The notes below the pieces were generated by a model. That model saw only the letters and a list, made by a program, of their open reading frames with translations. It did no database searches and was not told where the DNA came from. Source: Escherichia phage HMD-P3. Taken from it: a stretch of 64,000 nucleotides of DNA. The translations under genes were made by a program, and so were the position numbers. Within the stretch, counting starts at the first letter, position 1, and each line of letters begins with the position of its first letter. Shown piece by piece: positions 3,973-55,392 of this stretch. The DNA is taken from sequence record PQ462667.1; one strand, written 5' to 3'.

Positions 3973-4167
3973 ATGTGTTGCAGAAAATCTGTTTCGTGCT
4001 GCCCAATGCCTGTAGCACGTTGTTGCTCTCCAGCAATGTTTACGCAAATACCGGCGTTCAATCCGTTTGCCTTTAAGCCTACTCTTATCCTGCCCCCTAG
4101 AGTAGATTTTCAGTCAAGATTGGCCTCCCGTATGGGTGGTTGCTGTACACCGAGAGTGTGGTTCTAA
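3973..4167 (+). CDS. small cysteine-pair-rich protein (64 aa)
   Basis: RBS AAGGAGG upstream; four CC dipeptides (MCC, SCC, RCC, GCC). Confidence 0.4.
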   Translation: MCCRKSVSCCPMPVARCCSPAMFTQIPAFNPFAFKPTLILPPRVDFQSRLASRMGGCCTPRVWF

Positions 4168-4180
4168 ACCAAAAAACAAA

Positions 4181-4215
4181 AGCCCCTGCCGAAAGGTAAG
4201 GGGCTTTTTCTTTTG
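4181..4215 (+). terminator. rho-independent terminator
   Basis: Stem agcccct/aggggct with 11-nt loop followed by tttttctttt. Confidence 0.65.
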
Positions 4216-4219
4216 CCTT

Positions 4220-4259
4220 AAATACAGAAAAGCCCGCGCTCTCAGAGGAAACGCGGGCT
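4220..4259 (-). terminator. rho-independent terminator for the SPFH gene
   Basis: Perfect 8-bp stem agcccgcg/cgcgggct; on the minus strand it is followed by a U-run (revcomp of acagaaa). Confidence 0.6.
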
Positions 4260-4283
4260 TGGTTAGAAGATTACGTGTAACTA

Positions 4284-5231
4284 TTACTTGTTACGCATAT
4301 CCATGATCATTTGACCATCGTAGCCAGTACCTACCACAGTCTGAGGCACACCACCTTGATACTTCTGAGCACGAATCATTTCAACTTCCAGTTGCTTCCA
4401 GCGAATCATCTCAGGAGTAATGGTACGTTGCAATGCGGCGTTAGCTTCAGCTTCTTTTTTAGCTGCGTACAGTTTAGCATCTGCGTCACGTTCATTAGCA
4501 ATAGCTTGGTTGTTGCGAGCTTCACGATCTGCTTCTGCTTGTTTAACTTTTTGCTGTGCTTCCTGTTCAACGCGGGCAAGTTCAGCTTTCGCAGCGTTAA
4601 CTTGCTCTTCACGAACTTTGGTATTCTGTACCTGTTCCATGATTACCGGTGGCAAAGTAATATCCTGAAGAAACACCTGCTTAACTGTGTAACCATATGG
4701 GCGTGCATACTCTTCAACTTCCTGTTGAATTGCAGTTTGCAATTGAGCCTGAATTTTAGCATCAAACAAATCTTGTGCTTTAGGTACAGACTTACCAAAC
4801 TCACGAATAGTAGACAGTAATTTTTCAGTTACATATTTGTCTAATGCTTGATCCTGGGTACCTGCATTAATACGGTTAATCGGTGCCTTAGAACCATCAA
4901 ACTGCAACATAACAGTCAGGTCAACAGTGGATTTAAACTTATCCTGACTAGGAACCTGAAGTTTATCTAATTTTAGAGCAATATCTTTAGTACTAAAAGT
5001 ATCGAAAGAAGCAAAAGGATTTACAATATGAAAGCCGGGTAATACTGGGCTAGGGTCAACTTTACCCAGGAAAGTCTGGGTTTTAACAGTACCGTCTTGG
5101 ACAACAGTATAAGAGTTAAGAGCCAGAACTAAACCTACCAAACCAACTGCAGCACCAATACCCCAACGTTTGATATTACGCATTAATTTTTGCTCATAAG
5201 TCAGTTCTTTAGTGTTTTTAGTAGCAAACAT
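4284..5231 (-). CDS. SPFH/band-7 (prohibitin/HflK/C-like) membrane protein
   Basis: N-terminal TM helix (WGIGAAVGLVGLVLAL), central SPFH-like region, C-terminal charged coiled coil (EQVNAAKAELARVEQEAQQKVKQAEADREARN...). Confidence 0.65.
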   Translation of the reverse strand: MFATKNTKELTYEQKLMRNIKRWGIGAAVGLVGLVLALNSYTVVQDGTVKTQTFLGKVDPSPVLPGFHIVNPFASFDTFSTKDIALKLDKLQVPSQDKFKSTVDLTVMLQFDGSKAPINRINAGTQDQALDKYVTEKLLSTIREFGKSVPKAQDLFDAKIQAQLQTAIQQEVEEYARPYGYTVKQVFLQDITLPPVIMEQVQNTKVREEQVNAAKAELARVEQEAQQKVKQAEADREARNNQAIANERDADAKLYAAKKEAEANAALQRTITPEMIRWKQLEVEMIRAQKYQGGVPQTVVGTGYDGQMIMDMRNK

Positions 5232-5265
5232 ATATTTCCTTTGTTTTAGTTACAGTTAATAAAAT

Positions 5266-5340
5266 TGGCCGAGGTGACAGGATTCGAACCTGCATAAAGG
5301 AATTTAGAAGACTCCTGCCTCTCCCTTAGACTACACCTCG
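5266..5340 (-). tRNA. tRNA-Arg (anticodon TCT)
   Basis: Sense CGAGGTG...GGAGT-CTTCTAA-ATTCC...GCAGGTTCGAATCCTGT-CACCTCG-G-CCA; anticodon loop CUUCUAA. Confidence 0.8.
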
Positions 5341-5832
5341 TTTAAGTATTTTTAAGAACTCTCGTAAAAACTCTTAAAAATACAGACGATACCGGGAGAG
5401 TCATAAGTCTCACTCATTAAGTATTTCAAGACAAAATACGGTAACGTCTACTATTTTCCAGTTTAAGTCAGGGTGACTTAGTGGTTATGTCCTGCGGTAT
5501 ATTGAGGACTCGGTTAGGCTCGGGGTCATGACTTCCCGCCTTTTGCTGCTACTCAACAGGAGTTATCGCGAATTACCTGTGCTATTGTGCACCATTAGTG
5601 ACATCTCTCATGCCAGCATTTCCCACTTTGTGGATAGCTTGAAAAACTACTCCGATATGGAGAAAGAACTTCACTATCCTAGAATACCTTCTAAAGTTCT
5701 TCTTTAGCCTGGACATAGTTAAATCGTAATAAAACTATTCAGCAGACTGGTTGGTTAGTCTGGAACCAACTACCGCGTGGTTTAGGCAGTGCGCAACTAA
5801 CCTCGGAAGCTTTTACTTTAAAAGCATCAGTT

Positions 5833-5914
5833 ATCCAGTTCTTACCGACCATAGGATTCGAACCTACATCTTCCACCAGTTACGGCTTGATAATACCAAT
5901 TATACTAGGACGGC
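5833..5914 (-). tRNA. tRNA-like element (perfect T-arm, imperfect acceptor, anticodon arm not resolved)
   Basis: Sense contains GTAGGTTCGAATCCTAT and acceptor-like GCCGTCC/GGTCGGT with one mismatch; no clean cloverleaf by eye. Could be a divergent or degenerate tRNA. Confidence 0.4.
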
Positions 5915-6129
5915 AGTGTTACTACATAAGTGATTTCCACACCCCACTATTTATAAATTAGAGAAGAGTTTAGGGGAGAGGTTTCAGACGCCTCATTTTA
6001 CACGTTCTAGCCACTAACCGGGATTGCCGCCCCCTGTGTACTAGTTTTACAACTAACCCACCGACTCTATTCAATGCGCTTCGGTTGGGATTATGCATTC
6101 AGCGTAATCGGCTCGCTGTTCCCTAATTT

Positions 6130-6618: not shown

Positions 6619-6788
6619 TATTTCATTCCTAGCGCTTGGTTAAAAGATTGTTCTGTCATAACTGCTGAGACTTTGGCGAAATCAAACTTTTTAGGGTTCG
6701 TAGTGATTTCAGCAACGTTAGAAGTTTTAACAGTTTTCGTAGTACGAATACCGCGAGTGTTAACACCAATAATTACAACTGATTTCAT
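6618..6788 (-). CDS. possible small ORF (56 aa), translationally coupled to the GatB/YqeY gene
   Basis: ATG preceded by GAGAGG; stop overlaps the downstream start (ATGAAATAATG); below the 60-aa track cutoff. Confidence 0.3.
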   Translation of the reverse strand: MKSVVIIGVNTRGIRTTKTVKTSNVAEITTNPKKFDFAKVSAVMTEQSFNQALGMK

Positions 6789-6807
6789 ACTTCGCTTCCT
6801 CTCATTA

Positions 6808-6862
6808 ATTTATGGAAGTATTATACGGAAATTTAAGTAGTTAAGCAAGTAAATTTTTAAGT
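6808..6862 (-). promoter_or_regulatory. T5-type early promoter (minus strand)
   Basis: Reverse complement cttaaaaatttacttgcttaactacttaaatttccgtataatacttccataa. Confidence 0.55.
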
Positions 6863-7324
6863 TTTAGTGACAACAGGTTTATAGAATGTATGTCCCTTAA
6901 TTTTAGTTGTTTTCTTAAATTTCTTTGTCCAGTAAGGTTTATCTTTACCACTATGGAAGTATAGTGCTCCATGTGTAGGATCTTGTGGTAAATCAACGTA
7001 GTATATCACTCTAGCTAAATTCTTAGCGGTTTGCCAAGCCTCATCAGTTTTATCAACTTTTGGTCTCTTAGATACCCAAGAGAACTGGTTAGACTGATAT
7101 ACTACTTTACAGTAGGAATCTGGGAATTTACCGGAGTTTACACGGTTTTTAGTAACATGTGCAATCGCCGTCATTCCCTTTATGCCCTCACCACGACTTT
7201 CGAAATAGATATTTTTAGCAATGCAATCTATTTCTTTTGCATCGTGCGATGCCTGACTACTAAAGCTGAAGGTAAGGGCAGCTACTAAAAGCAAAGCTGC
7301 CTTCATTCTTTTTACTCCTGCCAA
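6857..7324 (-). CDS. secreted cell-wall hydrolase, SleB-like
   Basis: N-terminal signal peptide (MKAALLLVAALTFSFSSQA); core IAKNIYFESRGEGIKGMTAIAHVTKNRV...VVYQSNQFSW matches the SleB-type cell-wall hydrolase signature. Confidence 0.65.
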   Translation of the reverse strand: MAGVKRMKAALLLVAALTFSFSSQASHDAKEIDCIAKNIYFESRGEGIKGMTAIAHVTKNRVNSGKFPDSYCKVVYQSNQFSWVSKRPKVDKTDEAWQTAKNLARVIYYVDLPQDPTHGALYFHSGKDKPYWTKKFKKTTKIKGHTFYKPVVTKT

Positions 7325-7629
7325 TCATATTCAACACGATTGGGATTTTCTTTATACCCTAAGTCAAGCAAATCATTACGCATATTTTGCTTAGCTACTG
7401 GGTTCGAGGTTACTAGTACCACTTTCTTTGGTCTCTGCCCAAATTCTAATAGTAAACGAAGAATTTGATAACCTTCCATACCATCTACAGCCAAGTCATT
7501 ATCCATATAAACGAAATGGCCTGTGGTATCAGTTTTATTCAGAAACTCTACAGCGGCTTCTGGGGTTCGAATGATAATGTCCATTCCGTGAAGATTACGC
7601 ACATCATCAATCAAAATATGAAAAGTCAT
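7312..7629 (-). CDS. hypothetical protein, possibly receiver (REC)-like fold (105 aa)
   Basis: Acidic motifs in REC-like spacing (ILIDDVR, VYMDNDL, VLVTSNP); weak, by eye only. Confidence 0.35.
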   Translation of the reverse strand: MTFHILIDDVRNLHGMDIIIRTPEAAVEFLNKTDTTGHFVYMDNDLAVDGMEGYQILRLLLEFGQRPKKVVLVTSNPVAKQNMRNDLLDLGYKENPNRVEYDWQE

Positions 7630-7647
7630 AATAGCCTCGTTTCATCA

Positions 7648-7705
7648 ATTTAAAAATATATTATACATATAATTTAGTAGATTAGCAAATACATTTTTAA
7701 ATTGT
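7648..7705 (-). promoter_or_regulatory. T5-type early promoter (minus strand)
   Basis: Reverse complement aaaaatgtatttgctaatctactaaattatatgtataatatattttt. Confidence 0.55.
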
Positions 7706-8071
7706 GAAACTAGTAAACCGATAAACAGCCTAGAGGCGCCACAGGCCATACCTTATGAGCCATGTACCTTTGATCTAGGGTTTTAATCATCAACGAATAC
7801 TTTGCATCTTTTAGCTTTAGAAGTTTAGAAGTTTGAGTTCTTTAAACTTTTCAGCTTTCATACTTAAATGTTGATCTTTGAAGTTGTGTCGGTAATATCA
7901 ACGACGCTTTGTTTTTACGTGTCAGCTTAAAAGGCTGGTGTAATAAACATAATCTCCAATAGATTATACTTTATAGTATGGTCAGCGGTCCTATTTAACC
8001 TCGTATTTCAACCGCTGCTGCGAGGTAAGATGCTTGGGCTTTCGTCTACCGATTTACTAGCTTTTAAATTA

Positions 8072-8710
8072 TTACTCTACTTCAATGAAGGTAGAGGCGT
8101 TAGACTCGGACAGAACAAAGTCAACATTTGTTGCAAAGTCCTGATATTCCTCGTCATGCTGCTTAATCAGCTTTTCCAGTTCCAGCGGATCAATCAAGAA
8201 TGGAGTATTCTTGAGTTCCAGCAGGTTGAGCTGCATTTTAACTTCATCTTCGGAAGTTTTCTTATCGCGAGTAGCCATGCTATCCTGCAAACGCTCATAT
8301 TTAGCATCAAACTGTGCTTTCTGCGTATTAAACTTAACCGTAGCGGCATGGAACTGCTTACGCATGTTAGCAAGCAGTTGAGCTTTAAGTTCCATAGAAC
8401 GCTTAGCTTCAATTGCTTCCGCAACAGTCATCTTACGAGAGCCAATCTCAACGATTGTTTCTGCATTGCTCTTAATCAGAGCAGATTTGATACTATCACG
8501 CTTAGACATCATATCCAGCAGAGACTGGAAATCAGTCTTAATACGAGTAGACAGATCGGCTACTTCGATTGCAGCGCCAACTACAACCTGGTTTTTATCC
8601 TTACCTTCACCAACAGCGATCAGAAGCTGCTGTTCAGTAGCTTTACGGATTTTAGCTTCCAGAGATTTGATAGTTGCCAGAGCACGAGTTTTAGAAATAC
8701 GAGTAGTCAT
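8072..8710 (-). CDS. hypothetical protein (212 aa)
   Basis: ORF with RBS; overlapping plus-strand ORFs are shadow frames; followed by a roughly 440-bp non-coding tail. Confidence 0.55.
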   Translation of the reverse strand: MTTRISKTRALATIKSLEAKIRKATEQQLLIAVGEGKDKNQVVVGAAIEVADLSTRIKTDFQSLLDMMSKRDSIKSALIKSNAETIVEIGSRKMTVAEAIEAKRSMELKAQLLANMRKQFHAATVKFNTQKAQFDAKYERLQDSMATRDKKTSEDEVKMQLNLLELKNTPFLIDPLELEKLIKQHDEEYQDFATNVDFVLSESNASTFIEVE

Positions 8711-44073: not shown

Positions 44074-44948
44074 TGAGTAAATCCTGGGGAAAATTTATTG
44101 AAGAAGAGGAAGCTGAAATGGCTTCCCGTCGTAACCTAATGATTGTTGATGGAACTAACTTAGGCTTTCGCTTCAAGCATAATAACAGTAAAAAACCATT
44201 TGCCTCAAGTTATGTTTCCACTATTCAGTCTCTAGCAAAATCTTATTCCGCTAGAACTACAATAGTTTTAGGAGATAAAGGGAAGTCTGCATTCCGCTTA
44301 GAGCATCTCCCTGAGTATAAAGGGAATCGAGATGAGAAATACTCGCAGCGTACGGAAGAGGAGAAAGCGTTAGATGAGCAGTTCTTCGAGTATTTGAAAG
44401 ATGCTTTCGAACTATGTGAAACTACATTCCCAACATTCACTATTCGTGGTGTAGAAGCAGATGATATGGCGGCTTATATCGTTAAACTCATTGGACATCT
44501 TTATGATCATGTTTGGCTAATTTCTACCGATGGTGACTGGGATACTTTATTAACTGATAAAGTTTCTCGCTTCTCTTTCACAACACGTCGTGAATATCAT
44601 CTTCGTGATATGTATGAGCATCATAATGTTGACGATGTAGAGCAGTTTATCTCTCTGAAAGCAATTATGGGTGATTTAGGAGATAATATCCGAGGTGTTG
44701 AAGGTATTGGGGCAAAACGCGGATATAATATTATTCGTGAATTTGGTAATGTTCTGGATATTATTGATCAGCTTCCATTGCCTGGAAAACAGAAATATAT
44801 ACAGAATTTAAATGCTTCGGAAGAATTGCTTTATCGAAACCTAATTCTGGTTGATTTACCTACCTACTGTGTGGATGCTATTGCTGCTGTAGGTCAAGAT
44901 GTATTAGATAAGTTTACAAAAGATATTTTGGAGATTGCAGAACAATGA
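44073..44948 (+). CDS. flap endonuclease / 5'-3' exonuclease (T5 D15-like)
   Basis: N-terminal NLMIVDGTNLGFRF and downstream acidic clusters typical of the 5' nuclease family; 291 aa matches T5 D15. Confidence 0.9.
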   Translation: MSKSWGKFIEEEEAEMASRRNLMIVDGTNLGFRFKHNNSKKPFASSYVSTIQSLAKSYSARTTIVLGDKGKSAFRLEHLPEYKGNRDEKYSQRTEEEKALDEQFFEYLKDAFELCETTFPTFTIRGVEADDMAAYIVKLIGHLYDHVWLISTDGDWDTLLTDKVSRFSFTTRREYHLRDMYEHHNVDDVEQFISLKAIMGDLGDNIRGVEGIGAKRGYNIIREFGNVLDIIDQLPLPGKQKYIQNLNASEELLYRNLILVDLPTYCVDAIAAVGQDVLDKFTKDILEIAEQ

Positions 44949-45391
44949 TTAAAATTAAATTAACTCATCCAGATTGTATGCCTAAGATTGGTTCCGAAGA
45001 CGCCGCAGGTATGGATCTGCGTGCATTCTTTGGTACTAACCCTGCTGCAGATTTACGTGCTATTGCACCAGGTAAATCCCTAATGATTGACACCGGTGTC
45101 GCGGTGGAAATTCCGCGAGGTTGGTTCGGTTTGGTAGTTCCTCGCAGCTCTCTAGGTAAGCGTCATCTGATGATCGCAAATACCGCAGGAGTGATCGACT
45201 CAGACTATCGTGGAACTATTAAGATGAACCTTTATAACTACGGTTCTGAAATTCAAACTCTGGAAAATTTTGAAAGACTTTGCCAGTTGGTAGTAGTACC
45301 ACACTACTCAACACATAATTTTGAAATTGTTGATGAACTAGGAGAAACTGATCGTGGAGAAGGTGGATTTGGAAGTTCAGGAAGTAAATAA
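44945..45391 (+). CDS. dut: dUTP diphosphatase
   Basis: dUTPase motifs AAGMDLRA, PRSSLG, GVIDSDYRG, GDRGEGGFGSSG. Confidence 0.9.
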   Translation: MIKIKLTHPDCMPKIGSEDAAGMDLRAFFGTNPAADLRAIAPGKSLMIDTGVAVEIPRGWFGLVVPRSSLGKRHLMIANTAGVIDSDYRGTIKMNLYNYGSEIQTLENFERLCQLVVVPHYSTHNFEIVDELGETDRGEGGFGSSGSK

Positions 45392-45412: not shown

Positions 45413-45450
45413 AAACCCCAATGGACAAAATCCATTGGGGTTTTCTTTTA
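45413..45450. terminator. bidirectional rho-independent terminator between convergent dut and tail-fibre genes
   Basis: Perfect 10-bp stem ccccaatgga/tccattgggg, 5-nt loop, T-run on plus and A-run upstream. Confidence 0.75.
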
Positions 45451-47604
45451 TTGTGATACTAGTTGTACCTTTAATTGCTCAAGCTCTTTCTCCAGATCTT
45501 CAATCCTTTTAATAAGATCTTGCACAACATGCATAGTGTCAAGAAGCATTGGAGTTGTATCTAATTCCTTTTGTTCCTGCTCTACTCCGTCATCATTATA
45601 GAATCTTCTGGTCTTTACATAGAGGGGCTCTATAGTCTCTACTTGCTGCGCAATAACCCCACGTCGGATACGAGATTTTTCATCGTTATTATATATAAAG
45701 GACTGGAATTCTAATCCTTTTAATACCTCGATGGACTTAGTTGCATCTATAGCTTTAATATCATGCTTTAAACGAGAATCAGATATAGCATTTAACTGCA
45801 GAGTATACGTTGCTGCGCCATTGGGCCACCAAGAATAGAAATAAATACTATTATTGTTTGGCTGAATTTTTAAACGTACACCATATTTGTTATCCGCGTC
45901 TCCCGATACGTGCCAGCAAGAATCAGCAAAGGAACCCAAGTCATTATGAATTAATCCAAAATGTGCAGATGTTTTATACCCCGCAGTAGAATACTGGGAA
46001 CCACTCAAAATACTATTAAAATTAAATGTACTGCCTATATTCGCTTCGCTCTGAGAAAAAGTACCTTGTACCCAGCCTGTCTGAGACCACGCCATACCAG
46101 TTACTAGTCTAGCTTCAAAACGATCCGCTACAAAATTCCCAGTATCTACAAGCTGGGCGGAACTCGATTTACCAGTAGATTTATTTTCTATTAGTAGCTC
46201 AGTAGAGTAGTTGCCATCAATAGTAGCTTTAGCACGTAATGTACTTACAGCTTCACTACTAGTACCTACTTTATACTCAGATAGTACACTCCCGCCATAA
46301 ACAGTAGTACTAGCAGAAGGTTTGACAGCATCGCCATTAATGACACTCCACGAGGTATTCGCAGCCACGAATCCACCAGAAGCACGGATTACCCATACAC
46401 CGACAAAGTTTCGTGTAAGGATTTCGTCCTGTGCTGCACCGTAGATAGGGCTTGAGTGTGAGGCGTCAAAATTTAATGTATTATAGCGCCCAGTTAATGC
46501 AATATTTCCTGTACTGGGGATCGCATCCCCATCCCCATTAGGAAAAATCCCATTATTAACAAAGAATGCACCGGCAGCAGCAGACCCAAATACCTGAGCG
46601 TAGCTAGTACTTGAGTAGCTAGGAACAGTACCTGTTATATTAGGCGCAGCTGATTCAAATAGCTGACCATTTGCACTACTATTCCCACCATCACCACGAC
46701 CGTAAAGAGCACGTATTGATCCTTGTTGCACACCGTTCCGATCTGGCACACGGAAAGTAGTTGTGCCATCACCCAAGGAGTATCTGCCACGCTGAAATTT
46801 ATCTGCTAACCAAACTGAATCATCTATGGCCCCAACCATTTGTGCATATGCCCAAAGTTCAGGCCAATCAGCCCTATTAAGGAGCTGTCCGTCAGAAACG
46901 ACTTCGTATGGCTGAATATACGCACGACTATCTCGGAGGTGAAAATCACCAACACCGTAGTTCATAACACCATTCATGGTAGGTCCAACTGTACCAGTGT
47001 TAATCTTATTCTCTACCCAACGCTTAGTAACAGCATCATAATCATTAACGGGATCTCCAGCAAGTGGAGTAGACCCAATAGGGCGTACATTTAGCCACGC
47101 AGCGGCTCGGTCTGCTAAATCTGATAAATTATTTTCAGATAATAGACTTTCGTCTTTTGTTGGCACATTATAACTTTGTCTAAAAGCTTCTTTTGATACT
47201 ACTCCAGTACCTCCTTGTTCTATAGAAAGTGCAGTGGTTAAACCTGTTAAAGATTTAATAGTTGAGTTGGCACCATCCATGTCTATACTAGCAAATCTTG
47301 ACCATGCAGTCCATGAATTGTAAAAAGATCTACTATATATCTCATTACTATTATAAGGTAAGTAAATTTGAGTACAAGAAGTTGATAAACTGCTTGCATT
47401 ATTTTTTAAGACTAGTAATGTACCTGCAGCTGCAACAGGATAGTTAAGAGAAGTAGGAGAGTTAGCATTTCCAGATTGCCAGTACTTTCCATACACCCTT
47501 CCATCAAGTGTATTTAAATCTGTTCCTGCAGTAATTAAACCATATACAGGTAATGCGGCTACATCAGTAGCCTTTAAGTTAATTTTATCAATTCTAAGAG
47601 CCAT
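45448..47604 (-). CDS. tail fibre protein with C-terminal intramolecular chaperone (S74-type autoproteolytic) domain
   Basis: C-terminal SDSRLKHDIKAI...GVIAQQVETIEP...LEKELEQLK is the hallmark of the tail-fibre/endosialidase intramolecular chaperone; the upstream part is Gly/Ser/Thr/Asn-rich. Confidence 0.75.
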   Translation of the reverse strand: MALRIDKINLKATDVAALPVYGLITAGTDLNTLDGRVYGKYWQSGNANSPTSLNYPVAAAGTLLVLKNNASSLSTSCTQIYLPYNSNEIYSRSFYNSWTAWSRFASIDMDGANSTIKSLTGLTTALSIEQGGTGVVSKEAFRQSYNVPTKDESLLSENNLSDLADRAAAWLNVRPIGSTPLAGDPVNDYDAVTKRWVENKINTGTVGPTMNGVMNYGVGDFHLRDSRAYIQPYEVVSDGQLLNRADWPELWAYAQMVGAIDDSVWLADKFQRGRYSLGDGTTTFRVPDRNGVQQGSIRALYGRGDGGNSSANGQLFESAAPNITGTVPSYSSTSYAQVFGSAAAGAFFVNNGIFPNGDGDAIPSTGNIALTGRYNTLNFDASHSSPIYGAAQDEILTRNFVGVWVIRASGGFVAANTSWSVINGDAVKPSASTTVYGGSVLSEYKVGTSSEAVSTLRAKATIDGNYSTELLIENKSTGKSSSAQLVDTGNFVADRFEARLVTGMAWSQTGWVQGTFSQSEANIGSTFNFNSILSGSQYSTAGYKTSAHFGLIHNDLGSFADSCWHVSGDADNKYGVRLKIQPNNNSIYFYSWWPNGAATYTLQLNAISDSRLKHDIKAIDATKSIEVLKGLEFQSFIYNNDEKSRIRRGVIAQQVETIEPLYVKTRRFYNDDGVEQEQKELDTTPMLLDTMHVVQDLIKRIEDLEKELEQLKVQLVSQ
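45451..45795 (-). other. intramolecular chaperone domain (predicted autocleavage near SDSRLK)
   Basis: Domain limits estimated from the last ~115 residues of the fibre ORF. Confidence 0.6.
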
Positions 47605-47613
47605 TTTAATTCC

Positions 47614-47919
47614 TCATGCCCACATGCGAACAGGTGTTTCTGGGTTTACTATAAACTTATCTAGTATAGAGAGATCAAAATCATCAATATTCATAATACG
47701 CAGATTAACGTGATATCCTTCTTGCACTACATACTCAATATCTTCTATATTTTGATACTCTGTTAAGGGTTTTACAGGCTGACTAATAATACCTATAAAA
47801 TCAATACTAACATTTTCACAGTATAAACTACCTGTTTCTTCATCTAAACTAAAGCCAAATTTTATCAAATTAATTTTCATTTCATCAGCATTAGTAAATT
47901 TTAGATATAAATCTTTCAT
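47614..47919 (-). CDS. hypothetical protein (101 aa) between the two fibre genes
   Basis: Stop lies 9 nt upstream of the next start; AT-rich. Confidence 0.45.
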   Translation of the reverse strand: MKDLYLKFTNADEMKINLIKFGFSLDEETGSLYCENVSIDFIGIISQPVKPLTEYQNIEDIEYVVQEGYHVNLRIMNIDDFDLSILDKFIVNPETPVRMWA

Positions 47920-47964
47920 TATAGGATCCTTAATTTATGGGAGCATTATATAATGCTCCTGTAC

Positions 47965-50060
47965 TTACCGTAAGCCATTAATCTGATCATTATTTAAGGC
48001 CCTATACCATACTCGGAAATTCTTAATATGATATACAAATTTAGAAACGGTATAAGGTGGTGGTGTACCTAACCTAGACGGAGTACCTGTCAAACTCACG
48101 GGAGTACTAGTAGATTTAGCAGTTTTACCATTAAAATAGTTGCTTATTTCATCTCCAACTATTTTTTGGACATAGGTCATAGGAGGTAAACTTTCTATAT
48201 CTGGAATAGATAAGGTTGGCCCACCACTAGATCTATATGTTATTATAGTGGCACTATCACTGCTATTACAGCGGCAGATAATGTCATTCCTAGAGCCTCT
48301 TACTTGCATAACTTCTACATAACTAGTATAAGGCCGTACTTTACAATTAAATTCAAAAGATACTGTACGCTCAAAGTAGTCCGCTAGGGTTCTATAGCCG
48401 GCATTATCTGGTATACACCACCATTCATCTGCTGTTCTAGTAGTAGTGGTATCAGTGCTATTACGGATGTAAGAAGTTGGAGCTATGCCTTCCTCAACCT
48501 GTATACCCCAGATGTAGAAACCAGAAACACCATCCCCCGGATAGACGGTAACACCAGTAGTTTTAGCCATCTGGAGTCTAAATATAGTATCTTTACTTGT
48601 AGTGGCAGCAAAAGAAAGCCAAATTCTATATATACCTCCAGTTAGTCTCTCATATCCCCCTCTAATATTACTAGCAGAACCACTTGTAGTAACAGTTTCA
48701 TTTTTAATATCAAAAAACATGCCCGCTGTTGTACCGGAAGCTACACGTAGGTATACTAAACGATTTGCAGTATCATCTTTAACATAAGCAGAATAGCAAT
48801 AAAAAGTATCAGCAGTCAAAGATATAAATTTATCTTTGGAATAATGCTCGCTGTCATTGGTATTCTCGGTAAACTTAGTCATTAACATTTCGCCAGTCGG
48901 ACAAGCCGAAGCATTAGGAGTTGTAATAACTGTACTACTTCCAGTAATTTCTTCTGAATTAGTATATAAATTAGTGCACTGGGACTCCATTAATAAACCT
49001 TGCTTTTCAAATCTAGGTTCATTAATATCTGCAAAACACATTTTACCACTTTTATCTATATAACTGGCGGTAGTTGAGCGAGTAAAATTTGCAGATTTTG
49101 TTGGTAATTCCAGAGTTACATCATTAATTGTTGCTAAATCGTAAGGGGCCATACCAGATAATAATCTCATATCATCAGTTAAAGGTACCCAAACATCCGG
49201 ATAGGGGACAGGTTCATATATAATAATACTAGCAGCAGAGGCAGCAGCAGCGGCTTCAGAAGCTTTAGCATTAATTTCAGAAGCTTTAGCATTAGTCTCT
49301 GAAGCTTTAGCATTAGTCTCAGAAGTTTTTGCTGCTGTTTGTGAAGCTGCTGCTGCATTTTTACTTGCTAATGCATCAGCGGCACTTCAATTTAATGATA
49401 CGGCGACCACCGAGATCTACACCTGAGGAAACACTCTTTCCCTACACGACGCTCTTCCGATCTAGCTGCCGCTAATTCGGAAGCTTTAGCATTAGTTTCA
49501 GAAGTCTTAGCATTAGTCTCAGAAGTTTTTGCTGCTGTTTGTGAAGCTGCTGCTGCATTTTTACTTGCTAATGCATTAGTCTCACTAGTTTTAGCATTAG
49601 TCTCGGAGGCTTTAGCTTTTGTTTCACTAGTCTTAGCATTAGTTTCTGATACTTTTGCATTAGTCTCTGAGGTTTTAGCCTTAGTTTCACTAGCTTTCGC
49701 ATTAGTCTCAGATACTTTAGCTGCTGCGGCTGATTCTGCAGATCTATCCGCTGATGCAGCAGATTGAGTAGCAGATGTAGCGGACTGAGTAGCAGAAGTT
49801 TCAGAAGCTCCAGCAGAAATAGCTGCTTCCTGTTCAGAGTTCTTAGCGTTAAGCTCCGAAGTTTTAGCCGCTATCTCAGAATCTTTTGCAGCTGCAGCAG
49901 ACTTAGCTGCTGCTTCAATAGAAGATACTAACTCACTTGCAGTAATAGAGCTAATAGAATTACCTAGAGTTACTGTATATCTAGGAAACTTACTAGCAGT
50001 AGCTTTAGTATCATCAATATTTAATATTTGTTGTACAATAATTTTAGTAGTTACTGCCAT
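47965..50060 (-). CDS. L-shaped tail fibre protein (LtfA/pb1-like), frame interrupted in this assembly by an adapter-derived insertion
   Basis: N-terminal part (49392-50060) has SETNAK-type fibre repeats. The frame of the 401-aa ORF 47965-49170 is open upstream through 49171-49380 and encodes the same repeat sequence, so the two track ORFs are fragments of one gene split by the artefact at about 49377-49463. Confidence 0.55.
49394..49463. other. Illumina TruSeq-type universal (P5/i5) adapter sequence (contamination / assembly artefact)
   Basis: AATGATACGGCGACCACCGAGATCTACAC + 8-nt index CTGAGGAA + ACACTCTTTCCCTACACGACGCTCTTCCGATCT; its translation gives the ORF tail ...RVGKECFLRCRSRWSPYH; flanked by duplicated sequence. 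Confidence 0.95.
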
Positions 50061-50482
50061 TATTTAGTTACCCCATCACTGATAAATACTTTACCCTCCA
50101 TTATACGAAAGGAGCTAATTGCAGATCCTATAATATCTCTAGTCATAATTATATCATAGTATCCCGCAAATCTCTGACGAGGATTATATTTATCTCTATC
50201 TTTAGATGCCTTAGCTCCTATATTTTCCACAGATTCTACTGGCAAACTTATAGCTACAGCCCCCTGAGCAGCATCAATAATATTAGTAGTAAAGGATGCT
50301 AATATCTCCGCATTCTCATCTAGGCTATTTTTTATAGTACCCCTTAGAGAGTACCCAGTTAAGTTAACAGGGGTATTTGTAGGTGGATAAGTACTATCAT
50401 CAACATCTAAGAACTGCATCATTAAACCATAAGGTACTTTTTCATCTATTACTAAGTCTATAACTCTATTTTCAGTACTCAT
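50060..50482 (-). CDS. putative collar protein (T5 p132-like, 140 aa)
   Basis: 140-aa ORF directly upstream of the fibre gene, the position and size of T5 p132; call by synteny. Confidence 0.5.
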
Positions 50483-50485
50483 TAT

Positions 50486-52558
50486 TTACCTTATATGAAT
50501 GTACCCGTTTTGCAGGTCTATCTTCATTCTGTAATAGGCTTCCGGGTTAGATGATAGTGCGGCCGCACGATCATATATAATATTCACACCAATTTGAGAT
50601 AAGAAAGCATTACCAGCAACTATTTTACTAGCGGTTACAGTACCATTAACTATCATATCTCCGTGTAAGACCATAGCAGGACTAACCCATGCCGAACCAT
50701 TCCATTGTCTAGTAAATGCTGTTTGCGGAGCATTACTATTAAACTCAGTTAATACATCGTATTTAACAGGTGGGGAACCAAAATTACTTTGGAAGAAGGA
50801 GTTAGCACGACTATCGTCCCATCCTCCTAATCCGGCCACTCCAAGAGAATACATGCCCGGGCCTCTCTGGCCATCCGCACCAATAGTACCTTCAGTACCA
50901 CTCCACTGAACAACGTCTGCCCAGCTAGTACCTTCTAGTAACTTATTAGTAACAGGGTCTAGAGTACCAGTTGTAGCATAAATATTCTGAGTCATATCAG
51001 TACGGTTAGGCGGTGTTTTAGACCAGCCAGGTGGTGGGTAATCCTGCTCCAATGGTTTTGCTGGTAAACTTTTACCAAGTTTATAAACAAATACTGTTTG
51101 TTTACCTTGCATACCAGTTCCAATATCTACGTCACCATTAGGAGTTCCAATAACAACCCCGCTAGAAATACGAAGAGTATCCCCATCATAACGTATCCAC
51201 TGAGTAGCATTACCTATATCTAACTTTGGCTTAGCAGAAGTGTTATCCATTCCCATCCAGATACCAGATTTTGTATCTCCCCAAGTTTTACCTTGAGTAT
51301 AGATTGCCGGATTATCTTGGCCAGTTAGATTAGTCATTACAAAGTTAGCAGCATTGATAGTTTTAGTTATAACACTACCATCAACGTTAACTATCTTTTT
51401 AATAGGATCGAAAGATATTGGTGCTTTTCCTTCGGCATCTAGGAGGCCTATATTAATAGCACCAGTAGTAGCATCGATTAAAAATGTTTGCTTCCACGTG
51501 GAGCCATCTTTAATCTTACCTTTAATATACGCATAGTTTACTTCTATACCAGTTTCATTAACAAAACTATTGTCAAGAGGGGTATCCTCATTTAGTATAA
51601 AAGTCTGTACTACAGAATCTGTTACATCTTGAGCATTTGGCCCCCACGCTATAGAGGAGACTTTAAATTTATGCTCAATTTTCCACGGGAACGATATAAT
51701 AGTTGCCGCTTGTGCAGCACCTACGTTAATTTTTTGGGCCTTAGTCCATCCAGTTCTTGCAAATTCTGCGGAGTCTATATAAGACACGACAAATTCACGA
51801 ACATTTGCTCCAGATCCCTTATTCCAATCCCATTGCACACGTAAATCATAACGTTCTTTACCATCTGCAATTCTTGCAGCCTTGAAGGTAATATTGCTAG
51901 GAGCAGTGGGTGGTACAAAGTTATATTCTACAGTAAGAAATTTAGAAAACTCAAAGTATCCAGAGGAATCTACAGTTACACCATCAGGCATAGTAACTTG
52001 CCCTGATATACGTACTTTATAATCTCCAATAGGAACACCACCAAATCTAATAGTCGGAGATAGTGGGCCTATATAATACTTTATCCATGGGCTATTTGAA
52101 GGTTGAGTACTTTTTAACTCAATAGTACAATAACTAGCTTCTCCTGTAGTTTCTATAACTACTATAGGAGCACCTACGCCCACATCTACTGGATCAGCTT
52201 CTGATCTAGCGGCAGTAATAATAGGTTTTCTCTTAGTACTAAAGGTAGTTTTATTGGATAAGTTTATACCAATTTTAGCCTCTAGTAATTCAGAATCTAT
52301 AATAGAATCATAAAAAGCCCCTTGAACTTCATAAGAGGTTGAAGGGGTTAGATTATTAATCATTACGAAGAAAGTATCTATACCAGTATAATCACGTCTA
52401 TCTATACTTTCTCCTAACTTTAGCCAAAAAGATCTACCAATAACATCATAGTCAGTATATATAGAGTGCTGGACATACGCCATTGTATATCCAGTCATTA
52501 TACTATTTAAGACCATTTTGGCTGGTGCATTATTCGAAATCATTAAATGGATGCCCAC
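50486..52558 (-). CDS. tail/baseplate protein (T5 pb4-like, 690 aa)
   Basis: Large beta-rich Gly/Thr/Ser-rich protein between the hub-like protein and the collar; by synteny and length. Confidence 0.55.
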   Translation of the reverse strand: MGIHLMISNNAPAKMVLNSIMTGYTMAYVQHSIYTDYDVIGRSFWLKLGESIDRRDYTGIDTFFVMINNLTPSTSYEVQGAFYDSIIDSELLEAKIGINLSNKTTFSTKRKPIITAARSEADPVDVGVGAPIVVIETTGEASYCTIELKSTQPSNSPWIKYYIGPLSPTIRFGGVPIGDYKVRISGQVTMPDGVTVDSSGYFEFSKFLTVEYNFVPPTAPSNITFKAARIADGKERYDLRVQWDWNKGSGANVREFVVSYIDSAEFARTGWTKAQKINVGAAQAATIISFPWKIEHKFKVSSIAWGPNAQDVTDSVVQTFILNEDTPLDNSFVNETGIEVNYAYIKGKIKDGSTWKQTFLIDATTGAINIGLLDAEGKAPISFDPIKKIVNVDGSVITKTINAANFVMTNLTGQDNPAIYTQGKTWGDTKSGIWMGMDNTSAKPKLDIGNATQWIRYDGDTLRISSGVVIGTPNGDVDIGTGMQGKQTVFVYKLGKSLPAKPLEQDYPPPGWSKTPPNRTDMTQNIYATTGTLDPVTNKLLEGTSWADVVQWSGTEGTIGADGQRGPGMYSLGVAGLGGWDDSRANSFFQSNFGSPPVKYDVLTEFNSNAPQTAFTRQWNGSAWVSPAMVLHGDMIVNGTVTASKIVAGNAFLSQIGVNIIYDRAAALSSNPEAYYRMKIDLQNGYIHIR

Positions 52559-55392
52559 TCCACAGACTGTTCTCCATCATCTCCTTCTGCTCTAATACGA
52601 AAATATAGTTTTCTATTGATCCCTAGAGCACCACTGTTATGAAGAGCAAAATCTGCCTTATTATACATTAATAAATAGTCATAAGTATACTGATTTTCAA
52701 TACGTACACTTCTTAGCATTCTATTCTGAGAATCATAGATCTCCAGAGTATAGAATATACTTTCTATTATATCTTCTTCTGGTATCCTATCCCAAGCTAG
52801 TCTTACATCTGGGCCTACAAACTCAGTTACATCCCCAGAAGCCATATTAGTTACCCTAAAATTAGATACTACACTTAGGTTTTTAGCAGAGTTAAGTTCT
52901 ATAGATAATGTTACTGGAGAACTTCTTCTACCGTTTATATCCACGGCCCTTATTTCAAATATTGCTAAACCTGCAGGCTCTCCAATTATCTCTTGGACCA
53001 TGCGTTCATTGGGATTTGTTTCTAGTTGCTGCACGATATAGGGTTCAGCATGACCTGAATGCACGATAGAGTAATAAACTACGTTATTAGTTAAACTTGG
53101 AAGCCAAGATAGCTCACCATTTTTTCCTATAGAGCCAACTAAACCACCGGGTGTAGGGGTATATTTAAAATCTCTAGGAGGAAGAACATTGTTACTAATA
53201 TCTGGTATATCATTACCACTATTATCTACTTGATCAGAGTTGATAAATACATCTTCCCCATACTCTTGTAGAGTAACATTTATCTTTCCTTCCCTAGAGT
53301 TTTCGACTTCATCTACTAAAAAGTATTTCTTATCCCATCCGTAACGGTCGTATGTAAATGCAATGGCATCGTTAGGTTCAATACCAATGAATTGATATGG
53401 TAAAGAAAAAGAAAGGGTTCTAGAATACCTAGATTTCTTAAGTTCTCTGTCTGCAAAACTTCTAGCAGTATAGTAGTTAGTTATATTTGCAAAAGATAAT
53501 TGTAATTTTTTGTCTAAATTTTTATCTTGCTCTTTATATCTAGAGTTATAAAAGGTAATAGAGTTAGTTTTCCAGCTAAGAGCTGGGTCTACGATGGATG
53601 CTTGAACTGAGTTGAACTTATTTCTACCAGTAGTATCTGATAGCTCTAAATCACCATAAGTATCCAGAAAATTAATCTCTAATGGAGTATTAGAATACTT
53701 TTCCACAGTAATTCTATACTGACCAGATAAGTTGTTAATAGCTCCACCATAGGACTCTAGCAAACCTTGCACATTTTTGAATACTGATTCAGATGTATCT
53801 AGAATAGTATTCATTTGTACTATTTGTCTATTTTCTGCTAATGGATCAGTCCACCCAATGTACCTCCAGTACGGCTGCCAGGATACTTGGTAAGATTCAT
53901 CTATAATATCTAGGATAGCAGCTTCCTGTATCAATTGTTGAAGAGGGAATTGATCAATAGTAATATTAGCACCGTATCTATCTGAAGTTAAGTAATCAAG
54001 TGTTTGCCAGATACCATTTAAACTAGTGCTATTAGCAGTTACTCTACCATCAGAGTGGTAGATTTTTACCTTCTTACCCTGAATCTCAGCACTAACTTCT
54101 GGAATCTCAGTTCTATTTTCATTAATAGTAAAGCGCACTACCGCATAAGCAGTATCTAATAGTTTATATCTAGCATCCCAGTACTCAGGCCCATTACCGT
54201 TCATACTTTGAAGATAGAACCCACGCTCCTTCGCTATATTTACTAATACTTCAGAAGCCGTTTGATCGGCTTTTCCATGATAAGTCCAAATCCTTATATC
54301 ACCATTACCATCGTTATATTTATATTCCTGGCCATGCACAGAAGGACTACTAGAAGATATTCCTGATGCTATTCTTTGCATGGTGTCTCCTGCTACTTTT
54401 TTAACACCGAAGCAGGTTCTAGCAGAGCTATCATTAGAGTCCATACAAATCATAGGATTATCACCAAAGGAAAAGTCAAGAAAACCGTCTATCTCTCCTT
54501 CAGCAAAAGCATATACTACATAAACTATATTAGGATTGTGTAATTCCGTATCCGCAAAAATAGGTATTCCCGGTATTTTCTGTACACCATAAACTACTGG
54601 TATATACTTAGCAGCAAGGTTAAAATCTATATCTACTTCTTTAGTAACAGTCTCATAATACTTTTTAAGACTATAACTTCTAGATAGTCCAAATAGCTTT
54701 TTCTTAGATTTTAGCTTGTATCTTTCTTCCTGTACCTGATACTTTGCTAGAATAGAGATACTTTTATTGGCATGAAAGAAACCGTAATCTTCTTGGTACT
54801 CAAGTCTTTTAGCCCCGTTAGATGGAAGTAATTGCCCTGCTACAACTTCAAGCCCTCTATGAGAAGCATCATCAGTAAATCTACCATTAACCCTATCAAA
54901 ATCATAGAATTGGTTAGAACAATTCCAAGTAATTGTGGAGGTTCCAACTCCCGAAGTACTAATATTATCCTTAATACCTCCACCAGTAATTCTACCTCTA
55001 AAGTATAATAAAGGCCCGTTTGTGTCTGGGTCTACAGGTAAAATAGAACCATCCTCTGTAATAATTGCTTGGTGGATTGATACTGTTCTATCTAAAAAGG
55101 ACACACCATTCTGCACTAATTTCAGTACTTCATCCTGCGCTGTACCCGTAATAGTAAAAGATAGACTGCCAATAGATAAATCTCTGTTTTGTTTATGTGC
55201 GCTAATAGATTTAACTTTACCAGCCTGATACAAAATACCATTATATAGTACATCTCTAAAATAATCAGTTAAATAAATAAAAGCAGTACTAGTACCAGTA
55301 GAGCTAGGCAACTCTAGAGAAATTAGACTAGCAGTTTTTATTCTGCTATTATTTTTTAAGTAGTTTCTAGCACTATCTAATATTTTTTTCAT
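52543..55392 (-). CDS. baseplate hub / tail tip protein (T5 pb3-like, 949 aa)
   Basis: 949-aa ORF immediately downstream of the Dit-like gene; by synteny and length. Confidence 0.6.
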   Translation of the reverse strand: MKKILDSARNYLKNNSRIKTASLISLELPSSTGTSTAFIYLTDYFRDVLYNGILYQAGKVKSISAHKQNRDLSIGSLSFTITGTAQDEVLKLVQNGVSFLDRTVSIHQAIITEDGSILPVDPDTNGPLLYFRGRITGGGIKDNISTSGVGTSTITWNCSNQFYDFDRVNGRFTDDASHRGLEVVAGQLLPSNGAKRLEYQEDYGFFHANKSISILAKYQVQEERYKLKSKKKLFGLSRSYSLKKYYETVTKEVDIDFNLAAKYIPVVYGVQKIPGIPIFADTELHNPNIVYVVYAFAEGEIDGFLDFSFGDNPMICMDSNDSSARTCFGVKKVAGDTMQRIASGISSSSPSVHGQEYKYNDGNGDIRIWTYHGKADQTASEVLVNIAKERGFYLQSMNGNGPEYWDARYKLLDTAYAVVRFTINENRTEIPEVSAEIQGKKVKIYHSDGRVTANSTSLNGIWQTLDYLTSDRYGANITIDQFPLQQLIQEAAILDIIDESYQVSWQPYWRYIGWTDPLAENRQIVQMNTILDTSESVFKNVQGLLESYGGAINNLSGQYRITVEKYSNTPLEINFLDTYGDLELSDTTGRNKFNSVQASIVDPALSWKTNSITFYNSRYKEQDKNLDKKLQLSFANITNYYTARSFADRELKKSRYSRTLSFSLPYQFIGIEPNDAIAFTYDRYGWDKKYFLVDEVENSREGKINVTLQEYGEDVFINSDQVDNSGNDIPDISNNVLPPRDFKYTPTPGGLVGSIGKNGELSWLPSLTNNVVYYSIVHSGHAEPYIVQQLETNPNERMVQEIIGEPAGLAIFEIRAVDINGRRSSPVTLSIELNSAKNLSVVSNFRVTNMASGDVTEFVGPDVRLAWDRIPEEDIIESIFYTLEIYDSQNRMLRSVRIENQYTYDYLLMYNKADFALHNSGALGINRKLYFRIRAEGDDGEQSVEWASI

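Follow-up and report, generated by a model that had tools for sequence, protein, structure and literature searches.

In T5-like phages, reversible binding of the fibres to O-antigen precedes the irreversible binding that is mediated by pb5. The lateral fibre of T5 itself is a single polypeptide of 1396 amino acids (aa), pb1 (Ltf), which has an N-terminal attachment region and a C-terminal S74 chaperone, and its collar protein is p132. Two fibre genes are present in the phages DT57C and DT571/2, for which an O-antigen receptor is presumed (Golomidova 2016; Ayala 2023). DT57C LtfA combines a distal receptor-binding part of its own with a C-terminal chaperone and a region that resembles gp14 of phiEco32, the proposed dock for LtfB, and DT57C LtfB starts with a peptide that resembles phiEco32 gp15 (PMC4728585). 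The N-terminal segment of DT57C LtfA inserts in a dodecameric LtfC ring and is followed by a trimeric coiled coil (PMC10713586). A variant with three genes was noticed in vB_Eco_mar004NP2 (mar004NP2; PMC6563131) and was interpreted structurally for IrisVonRoten (Bas32), where the T-shaped fibre is said to attach to the proximal fibre gp22, with a protruding galectin-like domain, and where the small gene was not discussed (PMC11990801). The latter paper names the IrisVonRoten proximal fibre 'Gp22' in the legend of its Fig. 12 and 'Gp23' in the text; the GenBank record of IrisVonRoten assigns gp22 to the 796-aa fibre and gp23 to the small open reading frame (ORF) of 92 aa. Here we describe the lateral tail-fibre locus of Escherichia phage HMD-P3, contained in a stretch of 64,000 nucleotides (nt) from record PQ462667.1 that is referred to as the window. 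The locus comprises a collar gene (ltfC), a proximal fibre gene (fibre A), a small ORF (s) and a distal fibre gene (fibre B).

We consider it likely that these genes form the operon for the lateral tail fibres of a Tequintavirus and that the locus is of the IrisVonRoten (Bas32)/IME178 type, in which four gene products make up one composite fibre. The nearest records are Tequintavirus genomes; IME178 is 91.9% identical over 81% of the region, and fp01 is 91.5% identical over 76%. The ORF list of the window holds five minus-strand ORFs between the dUTPase gene and the pb4/pb3 homologues. These are the ltfC/p132 homologue of 140 aa (50060-50482), a 222-aa ORF with SETNAK heptads (49392-50060), a 401-aa ORF (47965-49170), the acidic 101-aa product s (47614-47919) and fibre B, a distal 'T-shaped' fibre of 718 aa with a C-terminal Peptidase_S74 domain (45448-47604). 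All ORFs are found where an initial annotation, which was made from the letters of the window, had placed two fibre genes, a small ORF and a p132-like collar gene. In Bas32, the genes gp21-gp24 likewise lie between pb4/ltfC and dut, in the order ltfC, lectin-ended proximal fibre, small ORF and S74 fibre, upstream of the convergent dut gene. Gene content and order are also identical in IME178, fp01, AZ21 and mar004NP2, and the same three genes in IME178 are 91-99% (fibre A), 99% (s) and 69% (fibre B) identical to those of the window. On sequence grounds, we regard the three-gene locus of IrisVonRoten/Bas32, and not LtfA/LtfB of DT57C, as the correct comparator.

The window nevertheless differs from Bas32 in several respects. 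In the C-terminal module, its fibre A shares only 26% identity with gp22, and between fibre A and s there is a hairpin-containing spacer of 45 nt, whereas the Bas32 genes overlap. Furthermore, fibre B of the window carries another anchor peptide and an extra knob-like domain of ∼130 aa, while gp24 has no knob, and of the two variable cassettes in fibre B, cassette 1 is unlike Bas32 and cassette 2 is Bas32-like. The arrangement as such is already known in relatives and ordinary for T5-like phages; what the window adds is a second type of anchor peptide, or 'plug', and a new combination of cassettes. With T5 the window shares the collar protein, the N-terminal attachment region and the logic of a C-terminal S74 chaperone, which here resides in fibre B. 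In contrast to the single polypeptide of T5, the shaft and the receptor-binding and chaperone parts are split over two polypeptides in the window, with a small protein between them.

The attachment end of the fibre is readily recognized. The 140-aa product, a homologue of the collar protein to which lateral fibres are anchored, matches the Pfam family LtfC (PF23926; E 1.6e-14), is 83% identical to LtfC of DT57C, and in the PDB matches 8hqz_Q (E 8.5e-75) and T5 p132, 7qg9_R (E 3.6e-64). The stop codon of ltfC shares 1 nt with the start codon of fibre A (TAATG). Residues 1-199 of fibre A are 55% identical to residues 1-205 of DT57C LtfA, and the fibre A N-terminus matches residues 1-202 of LtfA in PDB entry 8hqz_d with an E value of 6.6e-38. 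In addition, the N-terminal part of fibre A was assigned to PHROG 5481 and PHROG 24369, both tail fibre. The presence of an LtfC/p132 collar together with an LtfA/pb1-type N-terminus points to a lateral-fibre attachment system of the T5-like kind, and the SETNAK heptads would then prolong the LtfA-like coiled-coil shaft.

Fibre A is represented in the window by two ORFs, and this split is not biology but an assembly artefact that is caused by a sequencing adapter. The minus strand from 49463 to 49394 consists of AGATCGGAAGAGCGTCGTGTAGGGAAAGAGTGT, TTCCTCAG and GTGTAGATCTCGGTGGTCGCCGTATCATT, which we take to be the Illumina TruSeq universal/P5 adapter with an 8-nt index; the adapter halves could be located exactly. 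The 70-mer of 49394-49463, or its halves, occurs in 24 phage records from unrelated hosts, which include Enterococcus, Klebsiella, Bifidobacterium, Listeria and Acinetobacter, and it mostly resides at record ends, as in OR360270 (41599-41668 of 41704) and LC768493 (140769-140837 of 140855). Full-length matches to the 70-mer were only 88-94% identical, as would be expected if the index differs. Its occurrence in 24 unrelated records supports the adapter reading independently, and it also indicates that adapter contamination of public phage genomes is not rare. Nothing supports the possibility that the adapter marks a chimeric join of two phages, as both flanks are similarly near to IME178 (90% and 92% nucleotide identity) and to P0122.

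The adapter contributes the tail 'RSEERRVGKECFLRCRSRWSPYH' and the stop codon to the 222-aa ORF. Before the adapter there are 199 genuine fibre A codons (49464-50060, minus strand), which encode the N-terminus that binds LtfC and the first part of the Ala-rich SETNAK coiled-coil shaft. Beyond it, another frame runs open from 49386 as far as a stop at 47965 and specifies, in 473 codons plus stop, the last heptads, the neck and the lectin-like domains; the 401-aa ORF lies within this C-terminal part. Since the frames on either side are 77 nt apart, excision of the 70-nt adapter alone would leave a frameshift of seven extra bases, so that the artefact comprises the adapter and 7 stray bases (49387-49463). 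Moreover, nt 1-604 of the gene align to nt 1-604 of IME178 and nt 673-2096 align to nt 767-2190, which means that in the DNA alignment the repeat array is short by about 162-169 nt and IME178 nt 605-766 are missing. In the 729-aa homologue of P0122, both junction flanks ('...ASELAAA' and 'SAADALASKN...') are present, with 56 residues, or eight heptads, between them. The adapter with the stray bases thus replaces about 56 codons of heptad repeats and shifts the frame. Judging from the frame arithmetic, the IME178 alignment and the P0122 junction flanks, intact fibre A would be at least 672 aa in length, and probably about 729 aa. The initial annotation had correctly suspected an artefact in this gene, but simple removal of the adapter does not restore the frame and ∼162-169 nt of repeats are missing; its estimate of about 650 aa for the SETNAK fibre was consequently too low.

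Close homologues of fibre A measure 630, 680 and 729 aa, which suggests that the repeat number either varies among homologues or was collapsed by short-read assembly. Tandem repeats of 21 nt are present in fibre A in 11.7 copies at 49476-49721 and in 3.6 copies at 49255-49329. In fp01 (NC_048731, locus 4139-6042), a run of unknown bases and a frameshift are located in the matching heptad-repeat region, and fibre A is annotated there as two coding sequences (CDS), a 'tail fiber protein' of 229 aa and a 'tail protein' of 418 aa. This defect at the same spot indicates that the 21-nt repeats recurrently trap assemblies. Repair of fibre A is therefore needed before the sequence is annotated or deposited, since the locus will otherwise be mis-annotated as three or four 'tail fibre' fragments, which is what befell fp01.

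Conceivably, if one break is artificial, all fibre ORFs could be pieces of one long pb1-like gene that was broken by sequencing or assembly errors. The adapter at 49394-49463 is indeed one real break, but the boundaries between fibre A and s and between s and fibre B have proper stops and starts, which recur in the independently sequenced genomes of IME178, fp01, AZ21, Bas32, mar004NP2, JenP2 and KurtStettler. The end of fibre A, ..NFRVWYRALNNDQINGLR, is moreover where proteins of the LamG-type family naturally end. We therefore consider a single gene extremely improbable, and the initial annotation was right to treat the fibres as separate, as they also are in IME178, fp01, AZ21, IrisVonRoten and mar004NP2.

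The last 420 residues of fibre A open with a conserved neck, IIIYEPVPYPDVWVPL..., which is 37-57% identical even in distant relatives. The neck is followed on the minus strand by a domain resembling the GTA head-spike fibre (about 48430-48993) and a LamG/ConA-like terminal domain (about 47977-48366). The C-terminal module was identified as NCBIfam GTA_spike_fiber (E 1.5e-31), and in the PDB it matches Rcc01080, the head-spike fibre of the Rhodobacter gene transfer agent (RcGTA; E 6.9e-21), with homology over about 190-220 residues. Rcc01080 differs in being a 325-aa head decoration without a coiled-coil shaft and without a detected LamG terminal domain; no adjacent s-like gene is reported for it, its neighbours being capsular polysaccharide (CPS) genes (PMC10218006). 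The RcGTA head-spike fibre was experimentally found to bind capsular polysaccharide (PMC10218006), and Pa193 gp46 is the platform where a trimeric tail fibre docks (PMC11456595). By analogy, the fibre A module could bind glycan, hold the next fibre, or both, and the lectin-like domains themselves probably bind surface polysaccharide. In mar004NP2, the annotation lists the fibre A homologue as a virion protein that was confirmed by mass spectrometry.

In a Pfam scan, no S74 chaperone domain was matched in fibre A. The proximal fibre thus ends in a lectin/galectin-like beta-sandwich module and not in a chaperone, as in the Bas32 type. This has implications for the two-fibre LtfA/LtfB organisation that the initial annotation had proposed. 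In a branched fibre of the DT57C type, fibre A would constitute a full receptor-binding fibre, chaperone included, and from its gp14-like region fibre B would branch off via a gp15-like N-terminus. Two fibre genes do follow ltfC in the window, the N-terminal ∼200 aa of fibre A are related to LtfA as described above, and the distal two-thirds of fibre B are 46% identical to LtfA 531-1073 and 41% identical to LtfB 116-785. However, neither the distal receptor-binding part of LtfA nor the gp14-like region (LtfA 223-471) was found in fibre A, as BLASTP of both parts matched only LtfA 1-205 and repeats. Neither was the gp15-like N-terminal segment of ∼45 aa of LtfB found in fibre B, where the match to LtfB only begins at residue 111 and residues 1-120 are only 18-25% identical. 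DT57C, in turn, has no intervening ORF and a gap of 38 nt between ltfA and ltfB, whereas the window has s. A DT57C-type branched fibre is therefore very unlikely, and the alignment to DT57C speaks against the organisation that was originally suggested.

The small ORF s encodes the most conserved product of the locus. It is 99% identical to its IME178 counterpart, where the C-terminus of fibre A reaches 91% and fibre B 69%. Structure prediction yielded a compact alpha+beta domain that was confidently folded. Searches of Pfam, NCBIfam and PHROG with s returned nothing informative, and a PDB sequence search gave chance-level matches only. While a single-sequence search retrieved 5 near-identical proteins, a profile built from phage homologues retrieved 251; s and Bas32 gp23, which are 32% identical over their full length, form one family in profile searches. 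We surveyed the genomic context of s in 80 IMG/VR loci, in 77 of which the upstream gene was resolved. All 77 upstream genes end in the LamG-like motif GH[IV]RN[FL]R[IVL]W..L.D.Q or a distant variant thereof, and 72 are detectably homologous to the fibre A C-terminus. Beyond IMG/VR, s is located directly downstream of a LamG-ended fibre gene in phage and prophage loci as well. The gene after s is more diverse in the 80 loci: 5 have a fibre B homologue at this position, 42 a hydrophobic protein of ∼97 aa and 13 a protein of 119 aa, and the rest have other genes. Prophage-like loci, with fibre A and s without fibre B, account for 42 of the 80, and the lambdoid phages 1H12 and 4A7 also carry fibre A and s without fibre B. 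The retention of s with a lectin-ended fibre where fibre B is absent indicates that its role is independent of fibre B.

From this invariant synteny we infer that s works specifically with the C-terminal module of fibre A, whether in assembly, as a structural joint, or both. Like lambda Tfa, Mu U and T4 gp38/gp57A, s is small, acidic, directly downstream of a fibre gene and linked to one type of fibre C-terminal domain. No similarity in sequence or fold to these proteins was detected, and a chaperone role of s is putative. As a separate observation, the ∼97-aa protein that follows s in lambdoid prophages is conserved and very hydrophobic (MDISPLLHALCAVAAQILVGLF...; for example L005 5292-5585 and L007 5292-5585), and in 1H12 and 4A7 it is followed by sitABCD iron/manganese transporter cargo on the opposite strand. 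Candidate roles for this membrane protein are those of a moron or exclusion factor.

The start of the next gene provided a further clue. The first 15-20 residues of the fibre-like genes after s are of two types, which track the s clade with no exceptions found. Members of the s clade of 93-103 aa (...PGYHVNLR...NP.TP.RVWA) are followed by a fibre gene that starts with M[AV][LN]R[IK]D. This type was found in the window, fp01, IME178, AZ21, an IMG/VR locus (L021), two Leclercia prophages and an Atlantibacter contig, in at least five sequence-distinct contexts with unrelated bodies, such as a T-shaped S74 fibre and a 287-aa Phage_tail_C_2 protein, amongst others. Members of the 92-93-aa clade are followed by a fibre gene that starts with M.T.T.IP.DI..LK, again with differing bodies, in Bas32, mar004NP2, JenP2, KurtStettler, several IMG/VR loci and an Escherichia ruysiae prophage. 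A scan of bacterial genomes contributed 7 loci only, which extend this comparison and are too few for statistics. Fibre B of the window starts with MALRIDKINLKATDV..., followed by the knob-like domain, and does not match the Bas32-type anchor MVTKT.IP.DIT.LK. We read the co-variation as the signature of an exchangeable anchor peptide that is matched to its docking partner, and it supports attachment of fibre B to the unit formed by the fibre A C-terminus and s.

We tentatively propose, as a possibility that we rate somewhat below even, that the s family of 92-103 aa and the lectin-like C-terminus of fibre A together constitute a previously unrecognised 'socket' for modular fibre stacking, the two clades of which accept matching plugs of ∼15-20 residues (M.T.T.IP.DI..LK or MA[LN]R.D.I.L). 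A somewhat more doubtful proposition is that s is not a chaperone but a structural joint that physically connects the C-terminus of fibre A to the anchor of fibre B, in the manner of T4 gp35/gp36. The position of its gene between both fibre genes, the perfect co-variation of the anchor type with the s clade, the high conservation of s and its compact, confidently folded domain would all suit a joint. On the other hand, s is kept intact in the 42 of 80 loci without fibre B, which argues for a function that is independent of fibre B, and s shows no structural similarity to known joints or adaptors.

Downstream of its anchor, fibre B is a mosaic of conserved and variable parts. Residues 1-20 form the N-terminal anchor peptide, residues about 21-137 the knob-like domain and residues 154-320 a conserved shaft. 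These are followed by variable cassette 1 (residues 321-400; 46405-46644, minus strand), variable cassette 2 (residues 441-600; 45805-46284, minus strand) and the intramolecular chaperone (residues 608-718; 45451-45783, minus strand). Peptidase_S74 was detected by Pfam at residues 608-660 (E 7.6e-12), which confirms the C-terminal chaperone of the 718-aa fibre in the initial annotation; the SDSRLKH motif begins at Ser608. SDSRLK at residues 608-613 aligns to position 1 of the S74 model, and the Ser608/Lys613 dyad (S-D-x-R-x-K) is present. The motif suggests that fibre B autocleaves its C-terminal S74 chaperone at Ser608. As a whole, fibre B belongs to PHROG 6921 (E 1e-206); its residues 150-718 are 81% identical to Bas32 gp24 (569 aa), and its residues 21-712 are 51% identical to residues 104-774 of gp110 from the Wifcevirus HermannAdler (Bas98).

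A windowed identity profile revealed two hypervariable cassettes in fibre B with near-invariant linkers between them. Cassette 1 is 85-88% identical to IME178 and 22-45% identical to other relatives (22-42% for Bas32). Conversely, cassette 2 is 82-92% identical to Bas32 and mar004NP2 and only 12-18% identical to IME178. The mosaic switch is located in the conserved linker at about residues 401-440. As the cassettes have different nearest relatives, fibre B is a recombinant of two known alleles. The two cassettes fit two exchangeable receptor-binding domains (RBDs), as would be expected for the T-shaped fibre family, for which a gp12-like RBD1 combined with a T5-like RBD2 and chaperone was proposed (Humolli et al., PMC11990801); the RBD1/RBD2 fold assignments for fibre B were carried over from that study. 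The distal parts are thus the variable ones, and the identity profile also lends support to the suggestion of the initial annotation that the distal domains are the likely determinants of host range.

Among the T-shaped dual-RBD fibres of Wifcevirus and Gordonclarkvirinae, gp110 of HermannAdler (Bas98) shares with fibre B the knob-like domain, the two variable regions and the chaperone. The knob-like domain is widespread in tail fibres and, as noted above, missing from Bas32 gp24. Since it is homologous to part of the N-terminal region of the Wifcevirus fibre, and Wifcevirus fibres are thought to bind baseplates directly (PMC11990801), fibre B might not be carried on fibre A at all. It would then be placed elsewhere on the tail or serve as an alternative fibre in some particles, and its adjacency to fibre A would merely reflect inheritance of a cassette. 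We consider this unlikely. Fibre B has no LtfC-binding N-terminus, and it lacks the first ∼100 residues of the Wifcevirus fibre, which are its baseplate anchor, having a 20-residue peptide instead. In addition, this anchor peptide co-varies with the type of fibre A and s, and the tail core of DT57C showed no density for a second fibre (PMC10713586).

Altogether, we favour the following model for the composite fibre. LtfC would form a collar ring on the tail tip, as suggested by homology to the solved T5 and DT57C structures. Fibre A would trimerise, insert its N-terminal ∼40 residues in the collar and project a long, alanine-rich SETNAK coiled-coil shaft, which would be followed by the neck and the lectin-like beta-sandwich domains of GTA-spike and LamG/galectin-like type. 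The small protein s would partner the C-terminal module of fibre A as an assembly factor and/or joint. Going by the co-variation, trimeric fibre B would dock via its short N-terminal anchor peptide onto the unit of fibre A C-terminus and s; it would carry two exchangeable receptor-binding cassettes and mature by S74 autocleavage at Ser608.

Several points weigh against this model. The Pfam match to Laminin_G_3 at the extreme C-terminus of fibre A is weak (E 3.8e-4) and does not reach the gathering threshold. In Pfam, PHROG, NCBIfam and fold comparisons, s resembles no characterised chaperone or adaptor. Also, the virion proteome of mar004NP2, in which eight proteins were detected, does not include s, but it is so shallow that this absence carries little weight, here or against s as a joint. 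Identities to the window of s and of the fibre A C-terminus correlate modestly (Spearman 0.42 across 52 non-redundant loci), and this weak correlation was not used as evidence. Lastly, fibre A and s are adjacent and co-inherited, so that the anchor co-variation does not discriminate between them as the socket, and it could in part stem from a common ancestry of entire cassettes.

The surroundings of the locus are those of a T5-like phage, with an SbcC-like gene of the D13 type, a flap endonuclease, dUTPase, pb4 and pb3 as neighbours. On one side, the dUTPase gene (44945-45391, plus strand) is convergent with the fibre operon. Between dut and fibre B lies a strong terminator-like bidirectional hairpin (45413-45443) with a GC-rich stem of 13-14 bp and T-runs on both strands, which is probably a bidirectional terminator that closes the fibre operon. 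A second hairpin on the minus strand, GGAGCATTA-TA-TAATGCTCC, with a perfect 9-bp stem that was read directly from the sequence (47940-47959), sits in the 45-nt spacer between fibre A and s. No T-run follows this hairpin in the sequence, which makes it unlike a terminator. Unlike in the window, the genes for the fibre A homologue and s overlap by 4 nt in Bas32-type, lambdoid and Queuovirinae loci. A promoter scan found 13 promoter-like sites where 16.9 were expected from shuffled sequence, and hence no excess.

On the other side, the locus is flanked by the pb4/pb3 homologues (50486-55392). The pb3-like ORF (949 aa) and the pb4-like ORF (690 aa, with a listed GTG start) share 16 nt (52543-52558), and the listed GTG start of the latter may be too far upstream. 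In IME178, the gene for pb4, the central straight fibre (locus 6774-8321), is annotated as two overlapping 'tail fiber protein' CDS. The pb4-like gene of the window is one intact 690-aa ORF (50486-52558), and the split in IME178 is probably a frameshift error of that record. Coliphage-type fibre-locus sequence was also encountered in records named 'Campylobacter phage' (e.g. C13, 99.9 kb) and in 'Listeria phage LM 4-11-1' (1.8 kb); such records look like mislabelled or contaminant entries.

For this phage, modelling of the host range should follow the composite fibres of the IrisVonRoten type and not DT57C. Up to three candidate glycan-binding sites would have to be taken into account, namely the lectin module of fibre A and cassettes 1 and 2 of fibre B. 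Together with the origins of the cassettes, these candidate sites provide the information that is needed to predict or engineer O-antigen specificity. If the socket proposal is true, T5-like phages, Queuovirinae and lambdoid-type prophages would bolt unrelated receptor-binding fibres on a common stalk, and s would represent a new class of fibre joint or assembly factor that is unrelated to Tfa or gp38. Its confirmation would also provide a simple rule for swapping distal fibres between siphoviruses.

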